Positions 5,042-28,659 of a stretch of DNA of 64,000 nucleotides are shown one piece after another. This DNA comes from a phage. Location of the stretch: NCBI GenBank assembly GCA_018865545.1, contig GCA_018865545.1_3633.1; one strand, 5' to 3'. The notes beneath the pieces were generated by a model, which saw only the letters and a list, made by a program, of their open reading frames with translations, was not told the origin of the DNA and made no database searches. How positions within the stretch are numbered: position 1 is the stretch's first letter; every line of letters starts with the position of its first letter. The translations under genes and the position numbers were made by a program.

Positions 5042-5398
5042 ATGGCACAGTGGAAACATCGACTTGATTTACGTGATATCTGGAAAGGTAATCCCGTAGA
5101 AGGTAAGGTAGAGCCTTGGGCAGATGATAATATTCACCTGTTTGTGGACATGCTTGTAAAAAGAGTAAAACGACTTTTACCAAAGCAAACTGATGAAGAG
5201 AATGCTGACTTCGATGGATGGTTGTATGATATTCTTGAAGAAATGCAGCATATTCTCACATATGAAGAATACTTGGAAATCTGTAGCAAAGAAGATAACC
5301 CCAACCTTATCGTGAGTCCTCTACAGCAGTTCAATCTGGCTTTGAACGAGTTCTACGACTGGTGTGATGAGAACAGAGTTTGGGTGGATAAGTGGTAA
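5042..5398 (+). CDS. hypothetical protein
   Basis: 118-aa ORF. Confidence 0.45.
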   Translation: MAQWKHRLDLRDIWKGNPVEGKVEPWADDNIHLFVDMLVKRVKRLLPKQTDEENADFDGWLYDILEEMQHILTYEEYLEICSKEDNPNLIVSPLQQFNLALNEFYDWCDENRVWVDKW

Positions 5399-5634
5399 AA
5401 CCTCTTGATTTTTCAGAGAGAGCGGAGTATTTAAAAACCGTTGTTAGAGCGAGGATGACACGACGACAATGGTTTTTAGTTTTTGGTGCAGAAAGAGTAG
5501 ACAATTTTTCTGCCAAAGACCTTGCATCAAGCATTATGAATCTGTATGCTGATATTGAATCAGCAGATATAGACAGTATCATTGAAAGTTATCTTGAGCA
5601 GAAGAACGATTTAAGGAACGAGACGAATGTCTAG
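5392..5634 (+). CDS. hypothetical protein
   Basis: 80-aa ORF overlapping neighbours by a few nt. Confidence 0.4.
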   Translation: MVKPLDFSERAEYLKTVVRARMTRRQWFLVFGAERVDNFSAKDLASSIMNLYADIESADIDSIIESYLEQKNDLRNETNV

Positions 5635-6835
5635 TAGAAATATTTTTGAAGATCATCGTGTTACACTCCGTGATATTCCAAGCCTCATGAAATTTTGTAA
5701 GAAGGCAAACAAAGCACTTATGATGTTTGGTGGTGCTGGGCTTGGTAAGAGTCAAGTCATGAAGCAAGTTGCCAATGAGATGTTTGGTGAACGAGATGAT
5801 AATCTCGTTGATTTTCGTCTTGCGGATAAAGATCCGACAGACGTAGTCGGTGTACAGATTCCTGTAACAGACGACAATGGAAAAACACGTACAGTCTATG
5901 CGCTACCAGATTTCTGGCCAGAAGACCCAGATTGGGAAGGTATTATTTTCCTTGATGAACTTTTACATGCTGATAACTACTTACAGAAAGTAGCTTTCCA
6001 AATTGTTTTGGATCATAAGATTGGTAAGTACACCTTTCCAAAAGGTGCAGTTTTTGCAGCGGCAGGGAACCGTCCTGGTGATGGTACGGCAGTGACCATG
6101 ATGGAAGCTCCTTTGGCTAACCGTTTTATTGTTGTGGAACTTGATTACGATGCCTCTGTGTGGATGCAGGATTATGCGTTGCGTAAAAATGTGCATCCAT
6201 CAGTAATTGGCTTTATCCAGGCCAATCCTGATAAACTGGAAAACTTCGAGGCCATGTATGAGATTAACAGTCCTGCATATGCCACACCACGAACTTGGGT
6301 TACTGCAAGTGATATTCTGTATGCGTATGAGGATGGTGATCTTACTTCCCGTCTTGCAATGGCTGCTTTGCAAGGGTGTATTGGTGGGCCATTAATGAAA
6401 GAGTTATGGTATTACCATACTCGCGTTGCTGATATGGTCCCCATTGAGAAAGTAATGGATGGTTCAATTAAGGAACACACTGGCTCTGATAGCTCTGATG
6501 TATTGTGGACGCTAGGATCACAAGGTTGCATCTGGCTACGTAAGGCTATGAAGAATACCAACTACACAGATGATCAGATTATTGACTTCTCAGCCAATTT
6601 CTTGCAATATCTGTATGATAACTTTGGTAAAGATGATGCTCATTCCAACCGCGATTTTGTATCATCTGTCTTCATGACGTTTATTAATGACAGTTCCACA
6701 GGGAAGGGTATTTTGTTAGATGGCCTTCGTGACAGACTGCCAGCGAAGTTACTTAAGAAGTATCCTGTCGTCATGCAGATTATTACTGAATATCACAAGA
6801 ACTTTGCAAAAGATGTAGATGCAATTTTAAATTAA
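5627..6835 (+). CDS. MoxR-like AAA+ ATPase
   Basis: Walker A GGAGLGKS, Walker B IIFLDEL, sensor AAGN. Confidence 0.75.
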   Translation: MSSRNIFEDHRVTLRDIPSLMKFCKKANKALMMFGGAGLGKSQVMKQVANEMFGERDDNLVDFRLADKDPTDVVGVQIPVTDDNGKTRTVYALPDFWPEDPDWEGIIFLDELLHADNYLQKVAFQIVLDHKIGKYTFPKGAVFAAAGNRPGDGTAVTMMEAPLANRFIVVELDYDASVWMQDYALRKNVHPSVIGFIQANPDKLENFEAMYEINSPAYATPRTWVTASDILYAYEDGDLTSRLAMAALQGCIGGPLMKELWYYHTRVADMVPIEKVMDGSIKEHTGSDSSDVLWTLGSQGCIWLRKAMKNTNYTDDQIIDFSANFLQYLYDNFGKDDAHSNRDFVSSVFMTFINDSSTGKGILLDGLRDRLPAKLLKKYPVVMQIITEYHKNFAKDVDAILN

Positions 6836-17409: not shown

Positions 17410-18132
17410 ATGGGAGGTGTATTGAGTGATACGGTTTTGTGCATGTTTGACGGATCAGGCATCATGGGTTACGAATGGGCAAAAAACGGGTATAAAGTAA
17501 TATGCCTTAACTATGATGATGCTGACCACGGCGGTTATGAAAGTATCCGAGTAAAACATAAAAATATAGAATACATTAATGTTTGGATAGATGACCAGTT
17601 TAACCCAACAGAGATAGGGATCTGTAAGCCAAGTATTATATTCGCATTTCCACCATGTACTGACATGGCTGTTAGTGGTGCAGCGCATTTCGCAAGAAAA
17701 GCTGCAAAAGACCCTTTATTCCAGATAAAGGCTGTAAATACAGCAAAGGTGGCAGCAAGGTTGGCAGATGAATACGACTGCCCTTACATGATAGAAAATC
17801 CTGTTAGTGTTCTATCTTCTCTGTGGCGTAAACCAGATCATTCATTTCATCCTTATGAGTACGGCGGGTATCTATCAGAGAATGATGTTCATCCGTTTTT
17901 TCCAGAATACATAAAACCCAGAGATGCCTACCCTAAGAGGACTTGTTTGTGGACAGGCAATGGTTTTAAGATGCCGGAGAAATTACCTGTCCCCGTGTTA
18001 AGAGGGTATTCTGAGCAGCACCTAAAATTGGGTGGTAAATCAAAAAAGACAAAGGTTATAAGATCGTTAACCCCAAGAGGATTTGCCAAAGCTGTATTCC
18101 TATATAATGATTTTAGGAGGGCTGGTGGATAA
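17410..18132 (+). CDS. C5-cytosine methyltransferase-like protein (compact)
   Basis: motif I-like FDGSGIMG, motif IV-like FPPCTD..SGA (PC dipeptide), motif VI-like ENP; only 240 aa. Confidence 0.45.
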   Translation: MGGVLSDTVLCMFDGSGIMGYEWAKNGYKVICLNYDDADHGGYESIRVKHKNIEYINVWIDDQFNPTEIGICKPSIIFAFPPCTDMAVSGAAHFARKAAKDPLFQIKAVNTAKVAARLADEYDCPYMIENPVSVLSSLWRKPDHSFHPYEYGGYLSENDVHPFFPEYIKPRDAYPKRTCLWTGNGFKMPEKLPVPVLRGYSEQHLKLGGKSKKTKVIRSLTPRGFAKAVFLYNDFRRAGG

Positions 18133-20478: not shown

Positions 20479-22515
20479 ATGAAAGGGCTTTTTGTCGGAG
20501 ATAACGAAGCTGACGGATTATTAGAAGAGGCAACTAAATATCACTGCACACTTTTTAAAGAATATGCTGTAAATAACTGGGTGTTGTTTCTCGATCCTGC
20601 TCACAAGGAATACCAGAGTGCAGTTAATTTTGCACGCAGCAAAGAAGGTGTTAATTTACGTATCCTTTCTTATGATGATTTTTACTCTTGGTTGCAGACC
20701 GAGCCAAGAGGGATAGCAATACATAACCTGTTCGGCTATGATTTACGTCTGTGGAAAAAACTTTCTGGGATTGAATATGACATGTTCAAAGACCCAAAAT
20801 GTATGGGGACGATAGGTAATAAACAGGTAAATCTTTACGACACTCTTTCAATGAGTCGTGTTCTTTACCCAGATCGCCCATTGCCTAATGGCTGCCCAGA
20901 TTCTGTATTGAACCCTGTAACAGGAAAACGTGACAGGGTTGGGCCACACGGCTTATTGGCATGGGGTTATCGTGTAGCAAACAAGAAAGTGCAGATTGAT
21001 GATTGGCGTAATCAGCCATTGTGGGAATATGTAAACCGTGTGTGGGAAGACGTTATCATTAACGAACTTGTGTGGAAAGCTCTTATTGATGAGTCAAATG
21101 GTACGCGATGGCCTGATGACAAGCAGTTTATGTACACTGATAAACCTCACGGGATGCACCAGATTAATTGGAAAAATGCATTACGTAGGAGAATGCTCAC
21201 AGACTATTTGATGATAGAGCAAGAAATACAAGGCGTATACTTTAATCGGGAGGAGGCAGAAAAATTAAGAGATCGCATAGATAAGATGATGCGAGAAATT
21301 GAAGAAGAGGTAGAACCACTTCTTCCAAAAAAAGAGATGACGAAATCTCAACAACCAAAATTCCCAGCTAACCCTTTTGACACAGCGGGTAATATATCTC
21401 ATCATGGGTGGAATTGGTTGGAATATAAACTTGGCTATCCTGTTAACAGGGAAGCTCTGGAGTTTAAAGCTCCACCAAAAACAGCTTTTAAGAGTAATGG
21501 GGATGTAAGTGCAGCAGGGGAGAGATATTGCATCCAGAATGGCATTGAAGATCCGGCTTTATACGGTGATTTCATTCGTTCCCAGCGAACCAAAGAGAAC
21601 ACACTCGAACCTTTACCGCCAGATCTTCTAGAGAAGGCTAAAGAAGACCTTCGAAACAGAAAAATGCCAGATTTAATGGTTCCAATGAAAATCTCTAATC
21701 AAGATGATATTAAAAAATATTTGATCAAAGATGCTGGTTGGAAACCTACACTGTGGCGTGTAAAAGATGTTACTAAGGATCAATTTAAAAAGACTCGTGA
21801 AGATTCTGAAATTGATGTACTAGTTAAGAAGTACATAGAAGAGTTGGCAGAGTCTGAGTATAAATCTCTTATTCTTGACTACCTTAATGATTCAGATGAG
21901 AAATTCAACATTTCAGAGCGTAAGTTTGACCATCGCCATGCATCTGAAAGGGGTTATTCAGAGATATTTAAGAAATTTCGGCGTAAAGCACGCCAGTTAC
22001 CGACATCTCCTCAATTAAAAGATAATTTTGGGCATCTGTGTCCAAATTTGGAGAAAATTGATGTGCATATGGCAAAACAGATTGTTAAGTGGCTATCACT
22101 TCGTAACAGGCGATCTGTTTTAGACCCAATGGATGAGGATAAGACGGATACAGGGTTATTAAATCACCCTCGTTTAGACATTGACGGAAAACTTCCAGCA
22201 CGTTTTTCTGGAATCACTAACACGGGCAGGTGCAAGCATACTGTTTGCGCAAACATGCCCAAGCCTGATCCGAAGGTTTTGTTGGGAAAAGAAATGCGGG
22301 GTCTTTGGACAGTCCCTGAAGGCTACTACCTGATGGGTTGTGATGGATCTAACTTAGAAGGTATGATTGCAGCGGCAGGGGCTTTTGAGTTTGATGGTGG
22401 TGAGTATTTACGTATCATGATGGAAGAGGATGCCCATGAACGAAACGCAAGAGCATACACAATAGCAGCAGGAAAGGAGGTAACACGCTCTGGAGGAAAG
22501 GGGGTTACGTATGGT
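20479..22515 (+). CDS. family-A DNA polymerase, exon 1 (3'-5' exonuclease to start of motif B)
   Basis: start ATG 20479 after AGGAGG; Exo I-like FVGDNEADGL; motif A-like CDGSNLEGM; ends ...RSGGKGVTYG, the first half of motif B. Confidence 0.75.
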
Positions 22516-23249
22516 TAATGATAGCCCCCTTACAAAGTAATTTGTAAGGTGCACCCATTGAATTGCTGGGAAGTCTGACCGAGTTATGTCGAAGATAATC
22601 AGCAGGTAAGCGAATGCTTCCCTCTTACAAAAGGAGGGAGAATATGAGTACATTTTGTTGTATAATCTGCGGTGAACAATGTGTTAAAACTGGTAAAAAT
22701 CAAAAAGTATGTCTCTCTGAAGGTTGTAGAAGAGAATATTCAAAGATAAAAACCAGAGAATATAGACGCAGAAAGGCCGAAAGAGAAAATAGGCTTGACA
22801 GAGTTGGCATAGGAAAAGGTGGTGGGCAGCCTCGTGGGAAATTGTCCAAATTTTATAAAAATGGCATATCGATGTTTCGTAAGTTATCCCCTGTCATAAA
22901 GGAACAGAGAAGATACTGTAATAGATGTAATAAAGATCTTCTTTATGCAGGTAAGGATGAGTGGTGCGTTCATCATATTGACCATGATAGGACGAATAAC
23001 GAAATAAGTAATTTTGAATTACTTTGTAAAAAATGCCATCAAATAGAACATAAATGTTGGGAAGCATTCGAAACTTCAACGACTAGCCGAAAGGCGTAGG
23101 GCCAAGCGGTGAGGGAAACCTCCAGTCTTTCAGACTGCCGAAGCAGTGGGCATCCTGAAAAGGATGAAGATATAGTCTGATCTGCATAGAAATATGTAGC
23201 AGTTCCTAAGAGGACGGGCATGGTGTAGCGAGCCATGTTGAACAATATG
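22516..23249 (+). mobile_element. group I self-splicing intron (IA-like) in the DNA polymerase gene
   Basis: exon 1 ends in U, intron ends in G; P-like AATTGCTGGGAAG (22561-22573), Q-like AATCAGCAGG (22597-22606), R-like TTCAACGACTAG (23075-23086), S-like GAAGATATAGTCTG (23166-23179); several GNRA-capped hairpins; HNH ORF between Q and R. Confidence 0.75.
22644..23099 (+). CDS. intron-encoded HNH homing endonuclease
   Basis: N-terminal Cys-rich zinc-finger-like region; C-terminal CVHHIDHDRTNN...CKKCH HNH motif; start ATG 22644 after AAGGAGGGAG. Confidence 0.7.
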   Translation: MSTFCCIICGEQCVKTGKNQKVCLSEGCRREYSKIKTREYRRRKAERENRLDRVGIGKGGGQPRGKLSKFYKNGISMFRKLSPVIKEQRRYCNRCNKDLLYAGKDEWCVHHIDHDRTNNEISNFELLCKKCHQIEHKCWEAFETSTTSRKA

Positions 23250-23882
23250 ATCATGTATGGAGCACAAGCTCCTAAGATAGCCGCAATGCTGGGTATCCCC
23301 CTTAATAGAGCACAGGCTGTAATAGACGCATTCTGGGATAGTAACTTCGGGTTGAAAATGCGTAGAGAGTGGTTAGAAAAATTCTGGGAGGCAAATGGGA
23401 GACGCTATATTCCAGGCATGGACGGGCGTAAAATTTGGACTCGTTCTAAACATTCTCTGCTGAATGCTTACCAACAAAACGGTGGTGCTTCATTGTTTGA
23501 CCTCATGGGAGTCCTGTTCCATTGGGAATTGGTGAAACGGGGATGGTACGACCAAGGTGTCAGGAGGGTTATCTACTACCACGATGAGATACAGGTACAA
23601 GTACCGGAAAGATTTAAATCAATAACGGAGCATTCTAACTTAGAGGCTGCACAAAGCTATGTAGACATGATGCTTGAAAAAGGCCATCGTTTCGACGGGC
23701 ATTATGTGAAAGCAGGTAAAGTTATTGTTGAACCTGATGTGTATGGGAAATACAGGATACTGCATTGCCCAGTAGGAGAGCTTGCAACAAAATGTGTAGA
23801 AAAAGCATCTAAGATAATGGGACTTCCCGTTTTAATTACAGGAGAATATCTTTGTGGATACACATGGGCAGATTCCCACTGA
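23250..23882 (+). CDS. family-A DNA polymerase, exon 2 (rest of motif B, motif C)
   Basis: begins IMYGAQAPKIA, completing motif B (K..YG..YGA...KI) when joined to exon 1; YYHDEIQV matches motif C. Confidence 0.75.
   Translation: MMYGAQAPKIAAMLGIPLNRAQAVIDAFWDSNFGLKMRREWLEKFWEANGRRYIPGMDGRKIWTRSKHSLLNAYQQNGGASLFDLMGVLFHWELVKRGWYDQGVRRVIYYHDEIQVQVPERFKSITEHSNLEAAQSYVDMMLEKGHRFDGHYVKAGKVIVEPDVYGKYRILHCPVGELATKCVEKASKIMGLPVLITGEYLCGYTWADSH
23854..23870 (+). repeat. direct repeat, copy 1 (flanks freestanding HNH gene)
   Basis: GTGGATACACATGGGCA; 14 of 17 nt identical to copy 2 at 24410-24426. Confidence 0.4.
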
Positions 23883-24492
23883 TGAAGTAGAGGAAATTTG
23901 GAAGGATATCGTAGGGTATCCTGATTATCAAGTAAGTAATTATGGAAATGTAAGATCTTTTAAATCAGGAATGTGGAAATACTTAAAAACTAAAAGTGAA
24001 AATTTATCTCCACAATGCTATCCGAGCGTGTGCTTGTACAAAAGGGGTAAAGATTCAGGGAAAAGTTTTTCAGTCCATAGACTTGTAGCGGAGGCTTTTA
24101 AAGAGCCTCCTTCTCCAGAATTGCAGAAAGAATGTAGAAAAACTGTGCTAGGAGTTCCAATTATAAACCACATAGATGGTGACAGACATAATAATAGGGT
24201 TGAAAATCTTGAGTGGTGTACCTATAGCCATAACAATACAGTGGCTTATGGTATGGGGAGAATCCAAAAATTTGGTGATGATTATCATTTATCTGTTCTT
24301 ACAAAGGAGAAAGTTTTAGAGATTGTACGGCTTATTGATTGTGGGATAACACACAAAGCTATTGCGGAACTATTCGGAGTTTCCAGAAATACAATATCTT
24401 CTTTAAATAATGGATACTCATGGTCACATGTCACAGGAAGACCTAAGAAAGTCCAGAAAAGAAGATCAAAAACAGACCCTATATCAGAGTAA
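23854..24492 (+). CDS. freestanding HNH homing endonuclease (NUMOD4-like N-terminus, HNH, C-terminal HTH)
   Basis: EEIWKDIVGYPDYQVSNYGNVRS; HIDGDRHNNRVENLEW; HTH-like ITHKAIAELFGVSRNTIS; GTG start overlaps the polymerase 3' end. Confidence 0.65.
   Translation: MDTHGQIPTDEVEEIWKDIVGYPDYQVSNYGNVRSFKSGMWKYLKTKSENLSPQCYPSVCLYKRGKDSGKSFSVHRLVAEAFKEPPSPELQKECRKTVLGVPIINHIDGDRHNNRVENLEWCTYSHNNTVAYGMGRIQKFGDDYHLSVLTKEKVLEIVRLIDCGITHKAIAELFGVSRNTISSLNNGYSWSHVTGRPKKVQKRRSKTDPISE
24410..24426 (+). repeat. direct repeat, copy 2
   Basis: ATGGATACTCATGGTCA. Confidence 0.4.
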
Positions 24493-24502
24493 GGTAAAAA
24501 TA

Positions 24503-24874
24503 ATGAAAGTAAAAGGAACCAAGACAACAACACAACTTATTGATGTTGAAGTAAACGACTCTGAAATCAAAAGAATCATAGATAGCCAAGACAAAATAAT
24601 CTTGGCAGAAGCAATTCAACAAAAACTTTTAAACAAATTCTTCAAAAGATGCCTACCTTCAATAGACGGAGAGATTATCGTAAGAAAGGACGCTAAGGCT
24701 GGCAATAGAGGAACACGGGTCTTCGTCCATGTTGATGCCGATTGGGATTACCATAATAATGTTGGTGTGGATAAAGAAATCAGGCCATTGACACACGGAG
24801 AGATTGTGCTGTATGAGAACATCCGAAAGCTACCTGAGTATATAATGTCGTTGGATGCTGAATTGGCTAATTAA
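24503..24874 (+). CDS. hypothetical protein
   Basis: start at ATG 24503. Confidence 0.4.
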   Translation: MKVKGTKTTTQLIDVEVNDSEIKRIIDSQDKIILAEAIQQKLLNKFFKRCLPSIDGEIIVRKDAKAGNRGTRVFVHVDADWDYHNNVGVDKEIRPLTHGEIVLYENIRKLPEYIMSLDAELAN

Positions 24875-24940
24875 GAACACTTGCTATAGGCAATCTGTTT
24901 GTGTATCATTTCGCTACCTGACACTTTGTGGAGAATTTCT

Positions 24941-25360
24941 ATGAGAAATGTAAAGATACATGCAATACCAAGTGACTATTTATCACCCCCTGTACAAGGG
25001 AGTTCCTTCTGTACAGACATGGTTTCTTACGATGACTACAAGAAACTGGAGGGTATGTTCATTGACGTAGCATCAGAAAATGCACTCCTAAAGAAGTTCA
25101 TTCGTGAGAGTTGTTATGTTTTTGATGGGGAACAATCTGATATCTCTGATGCATATACCCCAGCAGATCAATCACTTTTAATGCCTGGTTTGGAAGCCAC
25201 ACAGAAGTTTTCTACAGAGATGATGGCTCAAGGTGTTCATATGTACGGTATGCTCACAATCCGTATCGGAGAGCAGGAGCAAGAAGAAAGCATCATCTAT
25301 GCGGGAAAGCAAGCCCTTCTTTATGCAGAACAACTTCGTAATGGAGATTTCGAACAATGA
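24941..25360 (+). CDS. hypothetical protein
   Basis: start at ATG 24941 (track start 24899 is TTG). Confidence 0.4.
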   Translation: MRNVKIHAIPSDYLSPPVQGSSFCTDMVSYDDYKKLEGMFIDVASENALLKKFIRESCYVFDGEQSDISDAYTPADQSLLMPGLEATQKFSTEMMAQGVHMYGMLTIRIGEQEQEESIIYAGKQALLYAEQLRNGDFEQ

Positions 25361-25851
25361 ATTTTGATATTACAAAGCTACATGTCTTACTACAAAGTTT
25401 TTACCTTTCTTACGATGCTTGGGTAAAAAGAGGAGCACCAGACTCTGATATTTTCTCTCGTGACTGCGGTTTGTGTGCTAATTTATATGATTGGTGTAAT
25501 GTGAATCATTTGTCCGGCTACATGGATGACCTACTGGACATGCTGCATGATGATTTCGAAAAGGCGGGGCTAGATAAAAGATTGCCTTTCAACCAGACAA
25601 GCCCCTATAGTAGAGAAATGTTTAAAAATACTTGCCATAAGAACAAAGAACGCTTGCAATGGGTACAAGACAATATAGATTTGTTCAAGAAGGAGCAAGG
25701 AGCTTTAAGAAATAAGTATGAAACTTTGAGCGACGCTGCTAAAATGGTTGTGTATACATGGGCAAGTGCGGACAGTAAACAATTTAAAGCAAGTATGGAT
25801 AAAAGCGTCCCTGTATTACGAGATATTCTGTTCAATGAGGGGGAATCATGA
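25357..25851 (+). CDS. hypothetical protein
   Basis: 164-aa ORF. Confidence 0.45.
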   Translation: MNFDITKLHVLLQSFYLSYDAWVKRGAPDSDIFSRDCGLCANLYDWCNVNHLSGYMDDLLDMLHDDFEKAGLDKRLPFNQTSPYSREMFKNTCHKNKERLQWVQDNIDLFKKEQGALRNKYETLSDAAKMVVYTWASADSKQFKASMDKSVPVLRDILFNEGES

Positions 25852-26162
25852 AAACCTTTACAAAAGAGCAGCTACTTAAGCATGTTCGCTCTAATGTTGA
25901 CCATCTGAAAGACCTCCAACAGCGTGTTGGTGAGGCTGGAGATGAGTATAAGAAGATTTTTGACATGGTATCTCTTGATTTGGAGATTGCTAAGATCGCA
26001 TTAAATGCATTAGAAGCAAAACCGATTGGTGCTTTCCATATCGCAGAGCAGCAAGTCGATGGTACAAGCGATTATATCAAAGATGGGGAATGGCCCATTG
26101 ATAACGGAACAATTGAAGTGTACACTTCACCACTTGCTTTTACAAAGAGTAGCCGATATTAG
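25848..26162 (+). CDS. hypothetical protein
   Basis: 104-aa ORF. Confidence 0.4.
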   Translation: MKTFTKEQLLKHVRSNVDHLKDLQQRVGEAGDEYKKIFDMVSLDLEIAKIALNALEAKPIGAFHIAEQQVDGTSDYIKDGEWPIDNGTIEVYTSPLAFTKSSRY

Positions 26163-26216
26163 ATAATTTACCAAAAATGGGTTTCTTTGGCATATTTTTC
26201 ACAAATGGTTCTTATT

Positions 26217-27086
26217 ATGAAAGATAAAGTTTTTGTTCCGCCTATAAAATCGCAAGGGATTAAGACTAAACTGGTTCCGTGGATAAAGAGAATTGTTCCT
26301 AAAAACTTTAATGGGGTATGGGTCGAGCCGTTTATGGGGACTGGAGTTGTTGCCTTTAACGTTGCTCCTAAAGATGCATTATTATGTGATACAAACCCTC
26401 ATTTGATTTCTTTTTATAATGCATTGAAAAATAAAGATATAACAGGGGATCTTGTTAAGGATTTTTTATATCGTGAAGGTGAAAAACTCTTATTAAGTAA
26501 TGGTGAGTATTATTATGAAGTCAGGGAAAGGTTTAATAATTACAAGGAACCTTTAGATTTTTTATTCTTAAATAGGTCTTGTTTTAATGGTATGATTAGG
26601 TTTAATAGTAAAGGAGGGTTTAATGTTCCTTTTTGTAAAAAACCAAACAGATTTGCACAAGCATATATTACCAAGATTTCGAATCAAGTTGATAGGATTT
26701 CTGAAATAATATCAAAAGGGAACTATACATTCTTGTGTCAGTCATTTGAAAAAACTATTGGCATGGTAAATAGGGATGATGTTGTTTATTGTGATCCTCC
26801 ATATATTGGTAGGCATGTTGATTATTTTAATTCATGGGGAGAGCGTGACGAGCGTTTATTATTTGAAACGTTATCATCTTTGAATGCTACATTTATAACG
26901 TCTACGTGGCATCATAATGATTATAGGGAAAATAAGTACGTTCGTGATTTATGGTCATCTTTTAGAATATTGACGAAAGAACATTTTTATCATGTTGGAG
27001 CGTCCGAAAAAAACAGATCCCCGATGGTAGAGGCGCTAATTACAAATATCAATTACTTACCCCAGGCTGAAGCTGCGAAATGTTGA
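26217..27086 (+). CDS. Dam-like DNA N6-adenine methyltransferase
   Basis: motif [11 protein letters not shown], catalytic DPPY; local GC about 26% against about 40% for the window. Confidence 0.75.
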
Positions 27087-27104
27087 GATTAAGGTGAAAT
27101 AGTT

Positions 27105-27476
27105 ATGACCACTATTACCAAAGAACGTCTGCTGACAATCAAGCAATGGCGCGAAACATACGGACTAGGTAGCAACGTTGTACTGCCAGCAGAAGAAGCG
27201 CAAGAACTGGCTCGAATTGCTCTGGCATCGCTGGAAACAGAGCCTGTAGCATGGATGTGTGAGGACGCAGATGGTCGTGAGTATAACGCTCGCAATGAAT
27301 TTTCTGGTGGGAGGAAAGGAACCCCACTCTACACCTCTCCTAACGTGCAGGTAGTGCCGGAAGAAATGTATTGGCAGGATGCGCCAGTTGAAGGCAGCAG
27401 CAAAGCGGCTGCATACGCTACAGGCTGGAATGCCTGCCGCGCCGCTATGCTCAAAAAGAAGGGGATGAATCAATGA
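27105..27476 (+). CDS. hypothetical protein (high-GC island)
   Basis: 123-aa ORF; local GC about 50%. Confidence 0.45.
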   Translation: MTTITKERLLTIKQWRETYGLGSNVVLPAEEAQELARIALASLETEPVAWMCEDADGREYNARNEFSGGRKGTPLYTSPNVQVVPEEMYWQDAPVEGSSKAAAYATGWNACRAAMLKKKGMNQ

Positions 27477-27540
27477 CTTGGCCTGAAGCATTCACAACGG
27501 TAGGGGTTGTAATGGCTGTAGCCTTTGCAGTGTACTCAGT

Positions 27541-27756
27541 TTGTCGATGGGGGTGATGATGATAAAAGAACAACTAGGGAATGATACTCAAAAATCACGT
27601 TTTCAGCAGTGGTTGGAACAACAACATGACCAGATTGATGTGGATTGTGGTTGTGTTTCTATTGAAACATTCATGTATTGGTTACAAGTGGCGTATGAGG
27701 CAGGAGGAGATTTAAATGAGCAATGGTTATCAACCTGTCATCTCGGAAATGACTAA
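27541..27756 (+). CDS. hypothetical protein
   Basis: 71-aa ORF in high-GC island. Confidence 0.35.
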   Translation: MSMGVMMIKEQLGNDTQKSRFQQWLEQQHDQIDVDCGCVSIETFMYWLQVAYEAGGDLNEQWLSTCHLGND

Positions 27757-28102
27757 TGTTGCGCTTCCACCTTCGTCACCAAGCCTTAAAGCAGCAACCC
27801 AACAACCAGTTGCTTGGCGCTATCGTTATGTAAAACAGGGAAATCTGTGGACTGGTGACTGGAAATATGTCCCAACAAAAGAAGATTGTAACGACAGACC
27901 AAACTACGAAATTCAGGCGTTATACACCACACCTGTAACTTTAGAAGGTTTGTCTAAAGCAGTGCGCTTCTATGAACAGGTTAAGCGTGAAAATCCACCA
28001 GTCGAAACAGGGGCATGGAAAGATGCTATTGACTGGATACTCAAAGAGGCATATGATGTGGTAAATAAAACCACACAGGACTTATCGAGTTATGAAAATT
28101 GA
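27716..28102 (+). CDS. hypothetical protein
   Basis: 128-aa ORF in high-GC island. Confidence 0.4.
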   Translation: MSNGYQPVISEMTNVALPPSSPSLKAATQQPVAWRYRYVKQGNLWTGDWKYVPTKEDCNDRPNYEIQALYTTPVTLEGLSKAVRFYEQVKRENPPVETGAWKDAIDWILKEAYDVVNKTTQDLSSYEN

Positions 28103-28421
28103 TTACCAAAAATTACGTAAGCTAGCGGAGATAGCAAGAGATGGTGGTACTTATCAAGAAATAACTGACTACCGTACTATGGCCACACCTCAGCTTGTGC
28201 TGGCATTAATTGAAGAAATTGAAGATCAAGGCAAACGTATTGCAGATCTGGAGGCACGGATAGTAGATCTTCCTCAACGGTTGCAACCTGGTGCTGATGG
28301 TTATGATGATTGGTATATGCACAGCGCAGATGATGGTGAATATTTCAAAGCCGATGAGGTTATCGCGGCAATCTACGCCGCTGGCATTCGCCTCAAGGAG
28401 GCAACCAGTGAGCGGAATTAA
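28092..28421 (+). CDS. coiled-coil protein, tandem paralogue 1 (possibly Ead/Ea22-like)
   Basis: DYQKLRKLAEIARDGG and ATPQLVLALIEEIED shared with the next ORF. Confidence 0.45.
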   Translation: MKIDYQKLRKLAEIARDGGTYQEITDYRTMATPQLVLALIEEIEDQGKRIADLEARIVDLPQRLQPGADGYDDWYMHSADDGEYFKADEVIAAIYAAGIRLKEATSERN

Positions 28422-28659
28422 TTACCAAGCACTGCGTGAGGCGGCGCAGAACGCGAAAGATTTAGGTGGGATTAAGAATTACAAGCGAGGCGAGCAAGCT
28501 GTTGCCGAATTTGAGTCCTTGATAACACCACACATTGTGCTGGCGCTACTGGATGAAATTAAGAAGTTAGAAGACACAAATATTGACGCCATGTGTCAAA
28601 TTGCAGAACTCAAAACTAATGTCAAGTTATTGAAGGAAGGGGTAACTAGCCATGACTGA
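28408..28659 (+). CDS. coiled-coil protein, tandem paralogue 2
   Basis: start GTG 28408 after AAGGAGG; NYQALREAAQNAKDLGG and ITPHIVLALLDEIKK. Confidence 0.45.
   Translation: MSGINYQALREAAQNAKDLGGIKNYKRGEQAVAEFESLITPHIVLALLDEIKKLEDTNIDAMCQIAELKTNVKLLKEGVTSHD

Follow-up and report, generated by a model that had tools for sequence, protein, structure and literature searches.

The closest described relatives of the gene considered here belong to the EcoRV restriction-modification system. M.EcoRV is a type II alpha-class N6-adenine DNA methyltransferase whose target is the N6 position of the first adenine of GATATC. In the E. coli plasmids pLG13 (NC_005019) and pEC159 (NC_019982), its gene, ecoRVM, is oriented divergently from the genes of an HTH controller (C.EcoRV) and of the endonuclease; the neighbouring plasmid gene is annotated as 'type-2 restriction enzyme EcoRV', and its product matches the EcoRV entry of the PDB over its full length (E 1e-167). 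The cassette forms an island of 31.8% GC within a plasmid of 49.1% GC. A slightly diverged methylase allele (98%) shows the same M / C / R.EcoRV arrangement, and an M / C / R.EcoRV-like arrangement is also kept around a homologue of 73% identity in Erwinia piriflorinigrans CFBP 5888. According to PMC5333194, the native promoters PM and PCR overlap in the intergenic region of the EcoRV cassette.

There is precedent for the capture of restriction-modification methylases by phages for self-protection (PMC4190342, PMC12707154). In the lactococcal phage phi50, the LlaI methylase domain comes from plasmid pTR2030; 936-type phages carry orphan methyltransferases (PMC4190342). Orphan methylases are an established phage anti-restriction strategy, as is the avoidance of restriction sites (PMC12707154; PMC4190342; PMC6286503).

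The DNA analysed here is a 64-kb stretch of a phage genome, hereafter called the window. Its ORF at 26217..27086 (+) encodes 289 aa, from the ATG at 26217 to the TGA at 27084-27086, and we identify it as ecoRVM, the modification methyltransferase gene of the EcoRV type II restriction-modification system, in an orphan and 3'-truncated form; this identification follows from its plasmid counterpart, which adjoins the gene for the authentic EcoRV endonuclease. Two alternative starts lie upstream (ATG 26205 and TTG 26187), and the N-termini of homologues favour ATG 26217. The protein matches Pfam PF02086 (D12 N6-adenine MTase; E 4.9e-63), and the FxGxG and DPPY motifs that an earlier note on this DNA had recognized were found as FMGTG at residues 39-43 and DPPY at residues 193-196, with motif I before motif IV. 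In these motifs and in its D12 alpha class, the enzyme is like M.EcoRV of pLG13 and pEC159.

The similarity to the plasmids extends beyond the coding sequence. The segment 26171..27049 (+; 879 bp), which is equivalent to pLG13 5290-6169, is 99.4-99.5% identical to the ecoRVM region of pLG13 and pEC159 over 879-880 bp, and the plasmids share with it both the 46-nt leader and the start codon. Residues 1-278 of the phage protein are 100% identical to M.EcoRV of pEC159 and 99.6% identical to that of pLG13, where the sole difference is W22 in the phage versus C22 in the plasmid; W is the family consensus at this residue. Five plasmids in PLSDB match the segment at 99.4-99.5%; all come from E. coli and are small, mobilizable and of ColE1 type. 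Of the 5426 complete E. coli genomes searched, six have the segment, each time on a plasmid and never on the chromosome. The plasmid gene lies next to R.EcoRV and C.EcoRV, whereas the copy in the window is carried by a virulent phage without both: a tblastn search of the whole window returned no sequence of R.EcoRV or C.EcoRV. On these comparisons, the window holds an incomplete EcoRV system, that is, a methylase without endonuclease, controller or an intact divergent PM/PCR region.

Searches of phage collections gave only remote relatives. At the nucleotide level, 50,697 phage records yielded a single partial match of 74%, and at the protein level the best match in INPHARED was 48.7% identical, so far as these searches reach indicating that none of the catalogued phages has this gene. 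The best IMG/VR protein match was 65% identical, and the exact 41-mer across the right junction was absent from IMG/VR and from JGI metagenome contigs. We observed M.EcoRV-family methylases of 49-65% identity on unrelated uncultured viral contigs (IMG/VR loci L008-L013; INPHARED MT835745, from human faeces). Five of the six IMG/VR methylase loci have no EcoRV-like endonuclease in their flanks, and the remaining one (L011) is adjoined by a 36%-identical R homologue. The bacterial (Erwinia, 73%) and IMG/VR (55-65%) methylases belong to the same, highly conserved family; they are old, diverged lineages, whereas the gene in the window encodes what is in essence M.EcoRV of E. coli itself.

Regarding base composition, the gene is less extreme than had been proposed. 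The earlier note gave it about 26% GC, but the measured value is 33.2% (38.6, 34.1 and 26.9% at the first, second and third codon positions), and values near 26% are confined to third positions (26.9%) and to two 100-bp windows (26400-26599; 25-27%). Its other figures agree with our measurements: the mean GC of the window is 39.9%, for an estimated 40%, and the adjacent block put at about 50% has 50.7% GC at 27087-27500. Composition is not uniform on sliding-window analysis, and the dip at the methylase is real: the SD of GC across 870-bp windows is 2.35%, only 0.37% of these windows are as low as the methylase ORF, and their global minimum (31.7%) starts at 26121. The methylase is also the lowest-GC ORF among the 73 ORFs of at least 100 aa in the window. 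As a compositional outlier, however, it is only moderate (z = -2.2 for GC and -1.4 for GC3), and by codon-usage distance it ranks second in the window rather than first; because of this z score and rank, we rejected composition and codon usage alone as proof of acquisition. The neighbouring ORF at 27105-27476 is a stronger outlier than the methylase; its 51.6% GC is the highest of any ORF in the window. The low GC of the methylase gene came along with the EcoRV cassette, and the homology to the plasmids is a far stronger demonstration of acquisition than composition could give.

In the backbone that received the gene, positions 1-25000 of the window are 96.4% identical, at 100% coverage, to Escherichia phage Av-05, a virulent myovirus (Vequintavirinae, Avunavirus), and 95.2% identical to phages 24-2-1, 18-1-2, 19-1-2 and TH18. 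The alignment to Av-05 breaks at the AT-rich island, with homology up to 26144 and again from 27074. At the position of the methylase, Av-05 and 18-1-2 have two tiny hypothetical ORFs (41 and ~72 aa) and no methylase, and the gene is missing from the closest sequenced phages as a whole (Av-05, 18-1-2 and relatives, with 95-96% backbone identity). Small accessory genes make up a mosaic in the region around it (24-30 kb), where several further indels relative to Av-05 occur.

On the left, the insert is anchored by the ORF 25848..26162 (+; 104 aa), a homologue of Av05_00126 that is 95.1% identical to Av-05 up to 26144 and that matches phrog_660/60/5117. On the right, it is anchored by the ORF 27105..27476 (+; 123 aa), which is EaA-like, of lambdoid-prophage type. 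This high-GC ORF is assigned to the backbone, outside the captured segment: 27066-27476 is 91% identical to Av-05 at the nucleotide level. The same stretch is ~91% identical to ea-region genes of more than 100 Stx1/Stx2-converting lambdoid prophages, a likeness that reflects an earlier exchange of temperate coliphages with virulent Avunaviruses. The two flanking genes were observed to be paralogues (phrog_660, phrog_60, phrog_5117) with similar N-termini; therefore, the methylase sits within a tandem array of Ea-like accessory genes. A Pfam search of the flanking small ORFs gave no match.

Elsewhere in the window, two further features were observed. A second methyltransferase-like gene of the backbone, at 17410-18132 (+; 240 aa), matches phrog_757 (E 6e-87), contains an FPPCTD motif and is a homologue of Av05_00139, annotated as 'DNA methyltransferase'; Pfam gave no match for its product. 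At ~20500-24500, HNH/NUMOD4 homing-endonuclease genes break up the DNA polymerase region; their presence or absence varies between Av-05 and the contigs that carry the methylase (loci compared: L001 and L016-L021).

Both edges of the insert can be placed on the sequence. The left junction (26145..26170, +) consists of diverged backbone, as seen in a four-way alignment of the window, Av-05, 18-1-2 and pLG13. It is a remnant of the RBS and the start of a small Av05_00125-like ORF whose ATG has been destroyed: from 26143 onwards, the backbone is remodelled relative to Av-05 by a 16-bp deletion and substitutions, with loss of the RBS and ATG. The crossover into plasmid DNA lies between ...TAATTTACC and AAAAATGGG, with ~3 nt of microhomology (CCA). 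The native 5' leader of ecoRVM is retained from there on (26171..26216, +), as a 46-bp part of the M/CR intergenic region of EcoRV. In the plasmids, this region has two CCCAAAATGGG repeats, which are putative C-boxes, i.e., C-protein operators, and the crossover falls inside the second of them. The phage retains only one, here in the form CCAAAAATGGG at 26171-26181, and has lost the other repeat together with the sequence upstream of it. At the right junction and fusion tail (27050..27086, +), plasmid homology stops after ...ACAAATAT, immediately after codon 278 (...ITNI), and the reading frame continues for 11 codons (residues 279-289), out of frame in the 3' remnant of an Av05_00124-like ORF, to the TGA. 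The RBS and ATG (27105) of the downstream gene are conserved and untouched by the insert, which is co-oriented with the surrounding gene cluster.

Considering the 99.4-99.5% identity to plasmid ecoRVM and the lack of the gene in the closest phages, the recent horizontal acquisition that the earlier note had proposed from composition is borne out, and these sequences make it virtually certain that the methylase gene was acquired horizontally, with an EcoRV plasmid as the evident donor. The comparisons show how: an 879-bp piece of a ColE1-type EcoRV plasmid of the pLG13/pEC159 family entered a virulent Av-05-like Avunavirus by illegitimate recombination, in its variable region of accessory genes. 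This piece, comprising the 46-bp leader and codons 1-278, replaced most of the two tiny ORFs, while the genes for restriction and control (C) stayed behind, along with most of the native regulatory sequence. Our reading of the locus as a whole, which we consider probable, is that ecoRVM was captured from an EcoRV plasmid, most likely for self-protection against EcoRV.

Among the alternatives, the one that survives best holds that the captured gene is a non-functional or unexpressed passenger that persists only because its capture was recent. Its first argument is the C-terminus. Native M.EcoRV has 298 aa; in the 289-aa phage protein, the native last 20 aa (residues 279-298) are replaced out of frame by 11 unrelated residues. 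In an alignment of 48 family sequences, conservation extends through ...EA(L/V)(I/V)TN and the sequences are variable beyond, and several natural members stop 1-4 residues after ...ITN, i.e., without the tail that the phage protein has lost. The 98% allele was modelled at full length with AlphaFold2 (mean pLDDT 81); by this model, the phage protein keeps the last core beta-strand, and what it lacks is a terminal helix (pLDDT ~50-77) and a disordered end (pLDDT <50). The whole conserved core is thus retained, and since tail-less homologues occur naturally and the last strand is kept in the model, the tail-swapped enzyme is predicted to be probably active.

The second argument for a passenger is expression, given that PM lies in the intergenic region and just 46 bp of native upstream sequence were kept. 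Because only the M-proximal 46 bp of the intergenic region survive, native PM would be at best partly retained in the phage copy. No Shine-Dalgarno sequence is evident upstream of the candidate methylase starts, though the leader is the native one. A candidate sigma-70-like promoter, TTTACA-17 nt-GATAAT (26139..26167, +), spans the remodelled left junction, has its -10 element at 26162-26167 and matches the consensus at 10 of 12 positions, a consensus match only that is joint best in 24000-28500, and promoter-like matches in the region are not above the number expected by chance from shuffled sequence. Its spacing results from the 16-bp deletion and substitutions relative to Av-05 and 18-1-2, and the Av-05 spacing gives no such promoter. 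Expression would proceed from the junction promoter or together with the replication and early genes, which run in the same direction; transcription reading through from upstream genes of the same orientation would account for it just as simply.

A third argument is that divergence since capture is tiny, such that decay might still be invisible. Nevertheless, each of the seven independent contigs compared has an intact ORF, with none but synonymous changes in its coding sequence; the gene is co-oriented with its cluster, with the downstream RBS preserved; and the cassette occurs on backbones whose flanks differ by 1-4%, which suggests maintenance or spread. We therefore regard an inert passenger as unlikely.

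Turning to what a functional gene would do for the phage, the distribution of restriction sites is informative. The window contains 31 GATATC sites, within the 21-37 expected, such that the sequence is not avoided; by base composition, it is the joint highest 6-bp palindrome in observed/expected ratio, while it remains within the Markov expectation of 37. In turn, 20 of the 64 possible 6-bp palindromes are wholly absent, including GAATTC (EcoRI; 14-21 expected), AAGCTT (HindIII; ~20) and CTGCAG (PstI; 9-13); the PvuII (CAGCTG), SacI (GAGCTC) and KpnI sites are also missing, and expectations for these six named sites are 6-21. Palindromes containing GATC were observed not to be avoided in the window. 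The 50 kb of Av-05 examined (locus L015), which lacks the methylase, show the same pattern, with 17 GATATC, 0 GAATTC and 0 AAGCTT; exposure of the lineage to EcoRV therefore predates the capture.

The gene thus has the features of the orphan anti-restriction class, i.e., a methyltransferase on a phage genome without its endonuclease, along with unavoided target sites, and the methylase appears to patch a hole in the site avoidance of the lineage. The predicted activity is methylation of GATATC. During replication, the enzyme would methylate the numerous GATATC sites of the phage, packaged genomes would enter the next host already protected against EcoRV and its isoschizomers, and the methylase would close the gap in a lineage otherwise reliant on restriction-site avoidance. 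From the 31 unavoided GATATC sites against 20 of 64 palindromes absent, we infer that self-protection from EcoRV is the likely function of the gene.

An active methylase might instead have been selected for a role unrelated to EcoRV, such as countering other defences that overlap GATATC or GAT, or epigenetic control of phage genes. The rarity of EcoRV plasmids in E. coli speaks for this, and selection by EcoRV may, at six of 5426 complete genomes, be weak or episodic; so do the orphan M.EcoRV-family genes (55-65%) without an adjacent R gene on unrelated IMG/VR contigs. Nevertheless, the donor is specifically an EcoRV cassette, the capture must have occurred in a cell with an EcoRV plasmid, where the benefit would be direct, and the GATATC sites show no sign of a regulatory arrangement. 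A non-EcoRV role is accordingly very unlikely in our assessment.

The 'Dam-like' label previously given to the gene is right at the level of the family and wrong for specificity: the protein scores 272 bits against the TIGR00571 'dam' subfamily model (cut-off 114.85), but it is M.EcoRV, whose site is GATATC and not GATC. According to a reference cited in PMC4417163, this GATATC site of M.EcoRV is an expanded EcoDam site. A canonical Dam-type orphan methylase acting on GATC, with a role in regulation, replication or packaging as in T4, T2 and P1, would share this subfamily and the D12 class; a remote resemblance to DpnM, EcoDam and T4 Dam (E 1e-22 to 1e-14) could also be cited in its favour. 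The phage and E. coli Dam enzymes do have the D12 fold family and catalytic motifs in common with the window protein, and those of T4/T2 and P1 are likewise orphan enzymes on phage genomes. However, their similarity to the window gene is distant (E 1e-14 to 1e-21), their target is GATC versus the GATATC expected here, and Dam is a long-resident gene in phages as opposed to a recent plasmid capture. Against the EcoDam equivalog model PRK10904 (NCBIfam), the protein reaches only 104.9 bits of the 441 required; 278 of its residues are identical to the methylase partnered with authentic R.EcoRV, and the nearest phage-encoded homologue in INPHARED is only 48.7% identical. These observations make a GATC methylase highly improbable.

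An exact-protein look-up, the only search to reveal carriers, found the fused proteins, of 289 aa and 293 aa, in public data. Of seven contigs read, six (L016-L021) are carriers from independent assemblies with the same phage context and junctions, such that at least six public assemblies besides the window have this event; L022, described below, is a hybrid. The carriers come from NCBI (GCA_003360955.1), ENA (ERZ12298795 and ERZ13617595) and Logan (SRR14792941, SRR11805643 and ERR4398818), and the contig from SRR14792941 is 100% identical to the window across 6.9 kb. In NCBI, the fused methylase was found as an E. coli 'DNA adenine methylase' (WP_115447828.1 / EHP9877542.1), a label that arises because the 82-kb phage contig QGXP01000105.1 sits in the isolate assembly GCA_003360955.1; its presence there is phage carry-over or a persistent infection.

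All phage copies have in common two substitutions found in no plasmid, including pLG13 and pEC159, namely 26200 T>C in the leader and the synonymous 26975 A>G, and two sub-lineages each have one extra synonymous change, at 26552 and 26330. The changes since capture amount to one 5'-UTR and three synonymous substitutions and nothing else, which indicates, for the copies compared, a single capture followed by diversification without amino-acid change; three synonymous changes are too few as proof of purifying selection. A block of ~1.5 kb, from ~25800 to ~27230, is nearly invariant among carriers, while the outer flanks differ by 1.2-3.8%, a pattern suggestive of homologous recombination or a sweep having carried the cassette to related backbones. 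It is possible, though we hold it only tentatively, that the ecoRVM cassette is an actively spreading counter-defence module among Avunavirus backbones, with exchange with EcoRV plasmids perhaps continuing.

The hybrid contig, L022 (ENA ERZ4239850 NODE_31821), is a 3452-bp metagenome contig at 2.7x coverage in which R.EcoRV, C and the plasmid intergenic region are joined to the phage-type 3' junction. As far as window position 26200, its SNPs resemble those of the plasmids; from 26330, they are of the L018/L021 phage type. The simplest explanation is chimeric assembly of a sample in which both plasmid and phage were present; alternatively, the contig may be a true plasmid-phage recombinant. 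This low-coverage contig, which switches between plasmid and phage within the shared 880 bp, is also what could be said for treating the window itself as an assembly chimera or contamination, with host plasmid reads mis-joined into a phage contig. Such an artefact is hardly credible here, since phage DNA lies on both sides of the insert with identical junctions in NCBI, ENA and Logan assemblies made by different groups, the phage copies have the two substitutions seen in no plasmid, and the insert precisely replaces two ORFs while the signals of the neighbouring gene are kept.

Regarding the direction of transfer, four observations indicate that the gene moved from a plasmid into the phage: of a complete M-C-R cassette, the phage carries no more than a truncated part, non-coding plasmid leader included; the insert is 0.5% diverged from the plasmids versus 3-9% for the backbone flanks from Av-05; the low GC fits the cassette (31.8%) and not the phage; and the family is found with R and C in bacteria, the M+C+R arrangement extending to Erwinia at 73% identity. 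For the same reasons, the opposite view, in which Avunaviruses had the gene ancestrally and Av-05, 18-1-2, 24-2-1 and TH18 have lost it, or in which the plasmids took it from a phage, has next to no probability and is effectively refuted, even though presence and absence alone give no polarity.

The capture of ecoRVM from an EcoRV plasmid therefore stands as our preferred reading, and it closely parallels phi50 and the LlaI system of pTR2030. In both cases, a lytic phage took part of a plasmid restriction-modification methylase gene, nearly identical to that of the donor, and left the endonuclease behind. The host clade, the enzyme family and the phage family differ from those of phi50 and the 936-type phages; phi50 is protected from the restriction system of its donor, whereas protection of the window phage is a prediction; and public data show the capture described here, unlike that in the phi50 account, on several diverged backbones. 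Methylase capture by lytic phages is thus already known, and the present case is a very well-resolved further example; we found no earlier report of ecoRVM capture in the literature on pLG13/EcoRV, Avunavirus and GATATC phage methyltransferases.

What the locus provides is an unusually clean natural record of the acquisition of a counter-defence gene by a virulent phage, in which the donor is known at 99.4-99.5% identity, both junctions are resolved to the base, the discarded parts are known and several independent assemblies agree. Additionally, the purge of palindromes that spared GATATC suggests why this methylase was kept, and a testable prediction follows for host range on EcoRV-bearing strains. 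The phage context and the EcoRV origin of WP_115447828.1 are unrecognised in its present annotation. If the cassette is indeed a spreading module, an arms race between phages and plasmids, fought over a textbook restriction system, could be watched in real time. For Avunaviruses that are candidates for therapy, the capture of methylases could mean a wider host range.
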